Shown: positions 33,461 to 34,795 of the stretch, piece by piece
Position numbering within the stretch: position 1 is the first letter of the stretch
Layout: each line of letters opens with the position of its first letter
Source: Patescibacteria group bacterium
GTDB lineage: Bacteria > Patescibacteriota > Microgenomatia > UBA1400 > PJMF01
Direction of reading: 5' to 3'
Assembly: GCA_041747555.1 (NCBI GenBank)
Contig: JBGTEY010000013.1
Location: 208,814 to 272,813 of the forward strand
Length of the DNA stretch: 64,000 nt
Made by a program: the position numbers and the translations under genes
Notes under the pieces: model-generated
What the model was told of the DNA's origin: nothing
Seen by the model: only the letters and a program-made list of their open reading frames with translations
The model's database searches: none

Positions 33461-34795
33461 ATGCCTTTTAAACCTGAACACACGAGCTACACATTCAAAC
33501 AGTCTGAAATTATTGATGGCTCGTTATTCCATGCACAAAAGGGTACTGGCTATGAAATGGACATTAGTGGCTACTTACAACTTTTACAACAGGTAACCGC
33601 AAATGATGAACTACAGGAACGCCATCTGCCCGAAATTTCGCCTCATAGCGACGGTATAGATGCATTACTAAAAACATTAGCCATCTGCCTTCCGGTTGAG
33701 CTTCGTAATTACAACAGAACACTGGAGCAACAAGACTTATACGCAGAACTCAATGAGATAGTGAATGATCAATTTCAAACAGCACGCCAACTACTTGATG
33801 AACGATTGGCTGAGCTGAATATCTCTGAGCGTGAGCTTCCATCAATTGAGCTTGATGATCAAACCCAGACTGCTATTTCACAGGTGCAGGAGCATGCATG
33901 GTACTTGGTTTTACTCAATCATCGAGTGATTTATAGTGCGACACGAGCGCACGCCCAGTGGTCAAATTTAGATCCTATAGAACAACAAGATTTGCTCCAG
34001 CTCACGCTCATGAGCTGTTGGCGCTCAGCTTGTCGACATAAGCCTGAGCACGGAGCATTTTTAACGTACCTTGGTAGTTATCTACCAGATCACATCGGCG
34101 AACTCGCTGCTGCAGTCCAAGGAATTAGCAAAAATCACAAAGTAAATTATCTAGACAGCTACAAGCATGCGCGAGTTCAACTAAGGGGAACTGTACTCGA
34201 TTACCCATATTGGCACGAACTCTATGCCTGTATGGTTTTTGATAAAAAGGCAGGAAGGCTTTCATATCAAGAGCCACTCAGAGCTATTTTGGCATATGAG
34301 CGAATATACCGTGGGAATCGTCCAATTCATGATGACAATGATGTGTTACGCTGGCACAACTCTTTACAAAACATGAGAGAGACGCTCGATTTCAGTCGCT
34401 TACCTAGGTTAAGGCAAATACTGGATCTGGCATACCCACTTTCACTTGATCGAGAACGACTTATTTATTTTTTCAATGAACGAGGCGATCTTGACTCGCT
34501 CCATGGCGACATCTATTATCGGCTTTCAACTGAAGAAGAGGACATTCCAGATCTCGTTGATCAGCGTCTCCTGGAGGATCAGGTGCTCAAGGTATTTGAA
34601 TACCTCGATGCTCGAGAAGTATTAGTACTACAACTTCGGTATGGGCTACATGGTATGGGTGAACACACTTTAGATGAGGTGGGTGAAATTATCGGTAGAA
34701 CATATGAGCGAGCACGCCAGATTGAGAGTAGCGCTTTAAGAAAACTACGTCACCCCAGTCGAAGTTATCTTATTGAAGATTTTAGGTCGGAATAA
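33461..34795 (+). CDS. sigma-70-family-like protein with canonical region 4.2 but highly degenerate region 2 and a long unique N-terminus
   Basis: C-terminus [49 protein letters not shown] is near-identical in pattern to RpoD region 4.2, including the RKLRHPSRS ending. [44 protein letters not shown] aligns positionally with region 2.1-2.4 (DLIQEGNIGLMKAV.KF.YRRGYKFSTYATWWIRQAI), but the conserved -10-recognition aromatics are replaced. Confidence 0.55.
   Translation: [444 protein letters not shown]

Follow-up and report, generated by a model that had tools for sequence, protein, structure and literature searches.

The gene at positions 33461..34795 (+ strand) of a 64,000-nucleotide stretch of DNA from a Patescibacteria group bacterium (contig JBGTEY010000013.1, positions 208,814 to 272,813; the whole stretch is called the window here) encodes a sigma-like protein, which combines an RpoD-type region 4 with a region 2 in which the residues that melt and read the -10 element are replaced. 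We give about an even chance to the reading that this protein is an accessory, group-1-derived alternative sigma factor, which would prefer a TTGACA-like -35 element and would have a novel -10/downstream specificity. An earlier note, made from the letters of the same DNA, had named a highly diverged alternative sigma factor as one of its readings, and this is the best supported one in view of the apparently complete architecture, the docking positions that are kept and the constraint over the whole length. Judged by profile-profile alignment together with the predicted fold, the sigma-2/sigma-3/sigma-4 architecture appears to be complete. The coding sequence starts with ATG and has 444 codons plus the stop, and an identical protein (P0001) is present in a public collection.

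In a collection of 5.8 billion proteins only three full-length matches were found, namely P0001 itself, a relative with 64 % and a relative with 45 % identity. All three of these close orthologues are exactly 444 residues long, with no frameshifts or stops, and the 64 % orthologue is annotated as a sigma-70 family protein of a 'Microgenomates group bacterium'. HMMER, run exhaustively over 1.84 billion cluster representatives, added 13 further relatives with E-values from 3e-34 to 1e-5, which are 348-483 residues long apart from one 194-residue fragment. The query profile for this search covered residues 1-355 only, which kept ordinary region-4 matches out of the family. These distant relatives show the same whole architecture as the window protein, so that conservation in related genomes, which the earlier note had suggested looking for, is found both in three full-length orthologues and beyond them. 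Among the 1.84 billion representatives the family makes up 15 clusters, each of them a singleton on one contig.

Sigma-2 is the best-conserved segment among the close orthologues, with 77/59 % identity compared with 63/34 % for sigma-4, and across the family region 2 is conserved on a level with region 4. The label 'degenerate', which the earlier note had given to region 2, is therefore misleading. The 64 % identity of the sigma-like protein is ordinary when compared with its syntenic neighbours (CPBP 57 %, Exo_endo_phos 78 %, orf183 73 %). The composition of the gene is typical of the window (GC 0.434; GC3, the value at third codon positions, 0.366), and a recent horizontal transfer was rejected on this ground. 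From these comparisons we conclude that the gene is functional, under purifying selection over its whole length and no pseudogene. That it might be a decaying pseudogene, or a spurious open reading frame (ORF) with a fossil region 4, is extremely improbable. Such a view could point to a region 2 below the Pfam threshold and to a family that is extremely rare, but three orthologues down to 45 % identity retain exactly 444 intact codons, the architecture is common to 15 distant relatives, conservation peaks in the very region that was called degenerate, the predicted fold is a confident one, and the gene has a normal composition and an apparent promoter of its own. The conservation data effectively refute it.

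The C-terminal part of the protein is of canonical group-1 type. Its sigma-4 domain (regions 4.1/4.2; residues 366-441, 34556..34783, + strand) ends in an RHPSRS tail and has matches in Pfam, NCBIfam and the PDB. Sigma70_r4 (Pfam: PF04545) matches residues 382-431 with an E-value of 4.9e-12 and 45.6 bits (cutoff 24.1) and was detected in 14 out of the 16 family members. Compared with NCBIfam, the C-terminal ~85 residues score highest with RpoD/SigA (~72 bits), followed by RpoS (45), SigK (35), FliA (28) and sigma-32 (25), and every RpoD/SigA model matches at residues ~356-441. A phmmer search against the PDB sequences aligned residues 357-441 with region 4 of mycobacterial SigA, RHPSRS tail included (E-value 3.7e-16). 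The C-terminus is thus the textbook RpoD region 4.2 that the earlier note had seen in it. Counting as invariant the positions where 23 or more of the 24 canonical sigmas agree, 27 of the 30 invariants in sigma-4 are kept (mean family fraction 0.54). Residues R584, E585, R586, R588 and Q589 of region 4.2 reportedly contact the -35 element (Campbell et al. 2002, as cited in PMC4593229). By ungapped alignment to E. coli RpoD four of these five positions are kept in the window protein, and R584 is replaced by Y415.

Sigma-4 is preceded by a region 3.2-like linker or 'sigma finger' (residues 326-365, 34436..34555, + strand), which opens with a P-L-S-L-D-x-E motif. Hhalign places its 'YPLSLD' on the 'EPxSLETP' of RpoD, and AlphaFold models the linker as a low-confidence beta-hairpin or loop. 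The motif is partly conserved in the family, with S328 and L329 each in 11 of 15 members and E332 in 10 of 15. When the three orthologues were aligned by hhalign to a profile of 24 canonical RpoD sequences, residues 316-442 matched the end of region 3.1, region 3.2 and region 4 with an E-value of 1.9e-24. The RpoD-type region 4, the RHPSRS tail and the 3.2 motif place the apparent origin of the protein in a primary (group-1, RpoD-type) sigma.

Between sigma-2 and this linker lies a sigma-3-like helical domain (residues 226-325, 34136..34435, + strand), which is basic with an isoelectric point (pI) of 9.1 and ~35 residues longer than the canonical domain. It is defined by the collinear hhalign alignment, which has gaps in residues 251-308, and by the model, in which four helices are predicted with a pLDDT (predicted local distance difference test) of ~77-91. 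Pfam Sigma70_r3 was found in one of the 16 family members, with an E-value of 0.031. The earlier statement that no region 3 is recognisable is right in that no Pfam region 3 model matches the window protein, but in the alignment the end of region 3.1 and region 3.2 have counterparts in residues 316-365.

At the other end of the protein there is a family-specific acidic region (residues 1-130, 33461..33850, + strand; pI 4.55) that has no sequence match in Pfam, NCBIfam or the PDB and is kept in most family members. Residues 1-62 are of low confidence in the model, and residues 66-130 are helical with an invariant Pro78 ('LP' motif). This is the 'unique 170-aa N-terminus' of the earlier note, which is family-specific as claimed but only ~130 residues long, since sigma-2 begins near residues 131-145. 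Region 1.2 (Pfam: PF00140) and region 1.1 (Pfam: PF03979) have no match in the window protein or in the family, in agreement with the earlier view that neither is present in canonical form.

An AlphaFold2 model based on the 16-sequence alignment reached a mean pLDDT of 75.2, with ~80-90 over residues 70-320 and 370-440; a model based on only three orthologues had a pLDDT of 40 and was unusable. In a Foldseek search of the PDB with the former, the 50 best matches were all full-length sigma-A/RpoD chains from holoenzymes or initiation complexes, with a probability of 1.00 over 355-427 columns. The structure prediction that had been proposed with the original description of the gene thus gave matches to full-length sigma-A chains. 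The TM-scores of these matches are low (0.2-0.3), as expected when a free sigma of several domains is set against the extended form that sigma takes on polymerase.

The putative, diverged sigma-2 domain (regions 2.1-2.4; residues 131-225, 33851..34135, + strand) has a net charge of ~0 and is modelled with a pLDDT of ~80-89; it is assigned by a weak Sigma70_r2 match, the hhalign register and residue tables. Sigma70_r2 (Pfam: PF04542) reaches 16.1 bits at residues 164-204 of the window protein, below the cutoff of 24. Both orthologues have the match in the same register (E-values 7e-4 and 2.5e-4; residues 153-206 to model positions 4-55 of 71), and their alignment stops before region 2.4. A weak match with consistent register occurs in five of the 16 family members (16.1-21.2 bits). 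Among the Pfam searches suggested earlier, the region 4 model therefore gave a strong match, the region 2 model only a sub-threshold one and the region 3 model none in the window protein. With the 15-member family profile, hhalign returned one collinear block of 243 columns from residues 130-443 to RpoD 112-361 (E-value 1.2e-26), which begins in RpoD shortly ahead of region 2.1 and continues as far as its C-terminus. Its register is identical to that of the hand alignment of region 2 in the earlier note (DLLQLTL... against DLIQEGN...FSTYATWWIRQAI).

In this register, 13 of the 45 canonical invariants of sigma-2 are kept (mean family fraction 0.21), and the survivors are scaffold or core-docking positions. 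Residue numbers of sigma-70 follow the E. coli numbering as generally known and agree with the sigma-70 equivalents in PMC4593229. Across 15 members the survivors include N383 (15), R385 (11, with Lys in three more), D403 (13), Q406 (9), G424 (14), F427 (11) and Y430, which is Tyr or Phe in 13. The -10 face of the window protein is changed throughout: W433 is Ser, a position that varies in the family, W434 is Tyr, Q437 is Asp, R441 is Glu, R448-I450 are deleted, R451 is Gly, and V454 and E458 are both Asn. The residue tables thus confirm the earlier observation that the -10 melting and reading residues are replaced. Twelve promoter-contacting residues of sigma-A are 99.4-100 % identical among 1002 primary sigmas (Bae et al., PMC4593229, Table 3). 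The set that we tested consists of the W433/W434 dyad, Q437, R441, R451, V454, H455, E458, Y394, R397, R465 and R468. Of these 12, the window protein has only H455 (H226), and none is a conserved position in the family. In their place the family has conserved residues of its own, namely a Trp at R397 in 11 of 15 members and a Leu at N409 in 14 of 15. Conserved aromatics lie on the same sigma-2 surface, with W167 in 11, Y207 in 7 and Y/F203 in 13 of the 15 members.

The normal promoters of the host appear from their sequences to be of the canonical extended -10 type, including that of the sigma-like gene. An extended -10 element, TGCTATAAT, lies 16 nucleotides upstream of the ATG (33436..33444, + strand) and is the putative promoter of the gene, and TGATATAAT is found upstream of the 64 % orthologue. 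A -35-like hexamer, TTGACT (33411..33416, + strand), stands 22 nucleotides upstream of TATAAT, a non-canonical spacing; its significance is uncertain, and the orthologues have no conserved counterpart in front of their genes. The motif TGnTATAAT occurs seven times in 4.9 kb of upstream sequence (0.3 ± 0.5 in shuffles), compared with once in 56 kb of coding DNA, and TGnTAnnnT occurs 21 times (7.8 ± 2.8 in shuffles). TTGAC is not enriched upstream of the window genes, with four copies observed and 4.9 expected. Four tRNA genes have TAnAAT 10-25 nucleotides upstream, two of them (Lys, Leu) with a TGn extension.

Besides 33436-33444, examples of extended -10 elements stand upstream of the genes starting at 31171, 40868 (- strand), 42491, 43314 (- strand), 53881 and 56738. 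In addition to the seven exact copies, there are at least five of the form TGnTA[CA]AAT in the 4.9 kb of upstream DNA. From most of the extended -10 elements it is only 4-30 nucleotides to the predicted start codon, a distance that points to leaderless transcripts or very short 5' untranslated regions.

The TG of the extended -10 element is read by E458, H455, R441 and V454 (PMC4593229). Because the readers of TG and TATAAT are absent from the window protein while the host's promoters are canonical, we infer that a separate canonical RpoD is encoded elsewhere in the genome. Neither a second sigma gene nor dnaG was found in the 64-kb window. These promoters bear on a different explanation, according to which the protein is the housekeeping (sole or primary) sigma of a poorly sampled lineage, where it would have diverged extremely fast from RpoD. 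We regard this as very unlikely, since only one of the 12 promoter contacts is kept while the promoters are of the canonical extended -10 type. W433, W434, Q437, R441, V454 and E458, which are 100 % identical in the 1002 primary sigmas (PMC4593229), are all replaced despite the TGnTATAAT promoters. The group-1-like region 4 and 3.2 motif would fit a housekeeping sigma, as would the retained H455 and the lack of another sigma gene in the window, and the rarity of the family alone is not decisive for a sparsely sampled lineage. However, the gene is not in the dnaG-rpoD arrangement that is seen for a related canonical RpoD, and its orthologues (64 % and 45 % identity) have diverged much faster than a primary sigma should in a group whose enolases are 64-71 % identical throughout.

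Sampling can be judged from the enolase encoded 2 kb downstream of the sigma-like gene. Its nearest database relative has 71 % identity, followed by more than 100 matches at 64-68 %, several of which are named Woesebacteria, Microgenomates or Pacebacteria. These matches place the host in the Microgenomates group of the Candidate Phyla Radiation. By this measure the host's own lineage is barely sampled, and the wider Microgenomates group is densely sampled. The more than 100 Microgenomates-group enolases at 64-68 % come without a matching member of the sigma-like family. The contig of the nearest enolase relative (L010) keeps the block orf183-Lit-enolase-Na/Ca exchanger and then continues with different genes; beyond the syntenic block the sigma-like, CPBP, MFS and CNNM genes are all missing from it. 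The nearest relative thus has no sigma-like gene at the syntenic site, and the database holds no homologue from it, both of which count against a housekeeping role. Because the family is rare, has no member to go with the more than 100 enolases and is missing from the nearest relative's syntenic locus, an accessory role is suggested for the protein.

Further searches for the family gave few additions. No relatives were found among the IMG/VR viral contigs or, in a scan for two family subgroups, in 185,579 GTDB species-representative genomes. A scan of Joint Genome Institute (JGI) metagenomes yielded one extra short family locus, and a word-indexed search for homologues that used the N-terminal alignment of 15 members returned only four members, all of them already known. 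A phage origin was considered and rejected, because there are no IMG/VR relatives, the fold matches in BFVD are weaker than those to cellular sigma-A, and PHROGs matches region 4 only. We found no description of the family in the literature.

Several observations weigh against an alternative sigma factor. In the N-terminal 315 residues, aligned without the C-terminal anchor, hhalign found only a marginal match to RpoD (E-value 0.008, probability 5 %), and the three-sequence N-terminal part gave nothing credible against canonical RpoD. An hmmsearch of the PDB sequences with the N-terminal family profile returned no sigma factor, its best hits being chance matches to fibrinogen and CnrR. From sequence alone the homology of sigma-2 and sigma-3 cannot be detected, and therefore the assignment leans on the predicted structure too. 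Among the residues, E407, G408 and N409 of region 2.2 are replaced, the last by Leu as described above. Basic backbone contacts are lost at R441, R448-I450 and R451 and probably at R465/R468. The mean net charge of sigma-2 in the family is +0.7, compared with +7.5 in canonical sigmas, and the 2.3-2.4 helix has a net charge of 0 in the window protein and +4.5 in canonical sigmas. Compared with canonical sigmas, an uncharged sigma-2 is unusual for one that binds DNA. Moreover, no conserved partner gene such as an anti-sigma was seen across six family loci, and no candidate target promoter or regulon was found.

The same features can be read as those of a sigma mimic that does not initiate transcription, a possible but rather unlikely alternative. 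It would bind core polymerase and possibly -35-like DNA without being able to read or melt the -10 element, and could act as a competitor of RpoD, a decoy, a repressor-like protein or a storage factor. The loss of 11 of the 12 universal promoter contacts would fit this, as would the deletion of R448-I450, a Gly at R451 in eight of 15 members, the low charge of sigma-2 and its -10-reading helix, and a W433 position that is small or polar in most members rather than bulky and hydrophobic. The gene also appears to be driven by a housekeeping-type promoter and not to be autoregulated. In contrast, the strong constraint on sigma-2 in the close orthologues and its new conserved aromatics fit a re-specified surface better than an inert one, and both the start motif of the 3.2 finger and the basic sigma-3 are retained. 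We know of no precedent for a full-length sigma that acts as a pure competitor.

The W-dyad is not conserved in alternative sigmas (PMC4593229), which routinely do without it, and extracytoplasmic function (ECF) sigmas melt promoters without it by a different pocket mechanism (10.1101/534826). Since loss of the dyad is normal in alternative sigmas and ECF sigmas melt DNA without it, an alternative sigma factor is the most economical explanation. The suggestion of the earlier note that the protein regulates without opening promoters accordingly has to be divided: the arginine contacts and the positive charge are indeed lost, but an argument from the missing dyad alone is invalid. The idea of a mimic or competitor stays alive because the uncharged sigma-2 and the lost arginine backbone contacts go beyond what would be expected of a DNA-binding sigma-2. 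A bolder version, which we consider unlikely, would make the protein a full-length RpoD derivative without any -10 reader, which still fills the sigma site of RNA polymerase and can bind -35-like DNA but has an uncharged sigma-2 devoid of DNA contacts. It would either compete with or silence the housekeeping sigma, in a CPR bacterium with a minimal genome and few other regulators, or open promoters in a way unlike both the W-dyad wedge and the ECF pocket, for example via the enlarged basic sigma-3 or the N-terminus.

As an alternative sigma factor, the protein might work as follows. The housekeeping holoenzyme would transcribe its gene from the standard extended -10 promoter. The protein would then dock on core RNA polymerase, with region 2.1/2.2 on the beta-prime clamp helices, the 3.2 linker threading the active-site and RNA-exit channel and sigma-4 on the beta flap. 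Its RpoD-like region 4.2 would read a TTGACA-like -35 element, and the remodelled, uncharged sigma-2 together with the enlarged basic sigma-3 would recognise and open a non-canonical downstream element and so guide polymerase to a specialised regulon of small size. An autoinhibitory role like that of region 1.1 is possible for the acidic N-terminal region. The analysis showed directly which domains the protein contains, how far they are conserved, which residues are replaced, what type of promoter the host has and how patchily the family is distributed; that the protein binds core polymerase, reads a -35 element, opens promoters and serves a regulon is inferred.

The closest comparison among the known sigma groups is with group 1 (RpoD/SigA). 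By profile-profile alignment and predicted fold, both show collinear sigma-2, sigma-3, 3.2 and sigma-4 segments, and they have in common a near-canonical region 4 and a PxSLE start of region 3.2, and the sigma-2 survivors listed above (N383, R385, D403, Q406, G424, F427 and Y430) are shared. Unlike group 1, the sigma-like protein lacks the W-dyad and R448-I450, its sigma-2 is uncharged, it has the acidic ~130-residue N-terminus instead of a detectable region 1.1/1.2, and its sigma-3 has the insertion of ~35 residues. The best RpoD equivalog, NF004208, scores 71.9 bits compared with a cutoff of 555 and matches residues 366-441 only, and the gene is not beside dnaG. The best region-4 match outside the family, P0004 (361 residues; L004 1224-4086), is a canonical RpoD of compact size, in which all five of the Pfam sigma regions are present, and lies directly downstream of dnaG, as in the classic dnaG-rpoD operon. 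It illustrates the form of a normal primary sigma among the nearest relatives by region 4. P0004 comes from a different assembly and was for this reason rejected as the host's own RpoD.

Group 2 sigmas (RpoS/Hrd-type) are non-essential RpoD paralogues with an RpoD-like region 4, an evolutionary origin like the one proposed here. They have the same melting residues as group 1 (10.1101/534826), whereas these are lost in the sigma-like family, and the RpoS models match region 4 only (40-45 bits compared with cutoffs of 379-394). Group 3 sigmas (FliA/WhiG, sigma-32 and sporulation sigmas) are alternative sigmas with three domains and a comparable overall logic, in which the melting residues are not conserved either (10.1101/534826). 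Models of the FliA, sigma-32 and SigF/E/K types again match region 4 only, with 22-35 bits compared with cutoffs of 190-340, and their lengths of ~220-290 residues contrast with the 444 residues and extra N-terminal domain of the window protein.

ECF sigmas (group 4) have no sigma-3 domain and are far shorter. They share with the sigma-like protein the missing W-dyad and the match to TIGR02937, a sigma-70 superfamily model of 165 positions. This is the only curated model whose cutoff the protein passed (48.5 compared with 42.9 bits, residues 149-431), probably the reason why some members carry generic sigma-70 family names at NCBI and JGI. The sigma-like protein differs from ECF sigmas by ~140 residues of helical sigma-3/3.2-like sequence between sigma-2 and sigma-4, by the lack of an adjacent anti-sigma gene, which is typical though not universal for ECF sigmas, and by its RpoD-type region 4 (Sigma70_r4_2 in only three of the 16 members). 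No known ECF or group-3 family matches the protein over its full length, and there is no sign of pseudogenisation, the two outcomes that the earlier note had named as telling against its interpretation.

MzaA of the MZA anti-phage system also resembles region 4 (68.6 bits in NCBIfam, 40.3 bits in PADLOC), but only the last ~75-87 residues match, with a cutoff of 800 bits, and the neighbouring genes give no PADLOC matches. Membership in MZA or another defence system was rejected, as this is a generic region 4 resemblance with no defence genes nearby. Since the sigma-like family fits no established group, it is best described, on present sequence comparisons, as a new, very small sigma-70 subfamily of a Microgenomates-group bacterium of the Candidate Phyla Radiation (CPR) and of metagenomic organisms.

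The gene immediately upstream of the sigma-like gene encodes a half-size MFS protein (MFS_1), and downstream lies a convergent gene for a CPBP/Rce1-like intramembrane protease (34843..35490, - strand; Pfam Rce1-like E-value 3.3e-15). These are the membrane-protein flanks described earlier, though housekeeping genes are not far away, with enolase, EF-P and an aminoacyl-tRNA synthetase within 2-6 kb. The adjacency to CPBP was seen only in the window and at the 64 % orthologue (L001) and is absent next to P0003, P0133, P0127 and P0131. It probably reflects synteny by descent and not a functional partnership. A functional pair of sigma and CPBP protease, comparable to site-1 protease and anti-sigma, was rejected, because the genes are convergent and, among the relatives, only the closest orthologue has them side by side. 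Unrelated genes surround the 45 % orthologue and three distant members (an HD-domain protein, thioredoxin/TrxB, a methyltransferase, TrmB, sortase, NDK and peptidase M16). As a whole, the window is ordinary chromosome, with genes for ATP synthase alpha/beta, SecA, SerRS, a class-II aminoacyl-tRNA synthetase, pyruvate kinase, RecQ, enolase and EF-P and seven tRNAs. Neither a mobile-element context nor a riboswitch or other structured RNA was found at or near the sigma-like gene.

A segment of about 26600-35500 is GC-poor, with genes of GC 0.36-0.41 between flanks of 0.42-0.46. Directly preceded by tRNA-Arg/tRNA-His (25912-26543), it extends as far as the CPBP gene, and its right edge coincides with the synteny break relative to the nearest relative (L010). 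Its genes are YecM, DUF1801, Exo_endo_phos, MOSC, a 338-residue predicted membrane protein (30048-31064, - strand; no Pfam or PADLOC match), CNNM/CorC, the half-size MFS gene, the sigma-like gene and CPBP. The segment may be a variable region or an old island. Beyond it, the 183-residue ORF orf183 (35660-36211, - strand) matches nothing in Pfam or PADLOC and shares 34 nucleotides with the start of the Lit-family gene; it stands beside the Lit gene in both relatives, with 73 % identity in L001 and 51 % in L010.

Elsewhere in the window there is an unusual fusion of 702 residues (11719-13827, + strand), in which an HD phosphohydrolase domain is attached to the C-terminus of a class-II aminoacyl-tRNA synthetase (Asp/Lys/Asn type, with an OB domain for anticodon binding), and an ORF of 670 residues (2785-4797, + strand) has no Pfam match at an E-value of 1e-5 or below. 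The public (Logan) gene calls of this locus lack the CPBP/Rce1-like gene (34843-35490 in the window; clear Pfam match, E-value 3e-15) and have in its place a 96-residue ORF on the opposite strand (L003 8283-8573). Upstream of the distant member P0127, contig L013 has a run of eight small unannotated minus-strand genes (191-4816, - strand). Three of these eight genes are exactly 103 residues long (2187-2498, 3166-3477 and 3941-4252), which suggests a repeated cassette.

The genomes of CPR bacteria (Patescibacteria) are tiny and contain very few regulators that can be recognised, and little work has been done on transcription in these organisms; a survey of CPR protein families mentions sigma factors only in that sigma-54 is missing (PMC6744442). 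The immediate impact of the sigma-like family is limited by its extreme rarity (15 singleton clusters), its uncultivated hosts and the lack of an identified regulon. Nevertheless, it constitutes a natural experiment on the sigma scaffold, in which docking and -35 contact are kept and the -10 surface is rewritten yet strongly conserved. If the protein does not initiate transcription, it would be the first full-length sigma to act as a competitor. If it is a true initiator, it would represent a new solution to promoter opening and a new class of promoters in CPR bacteria.

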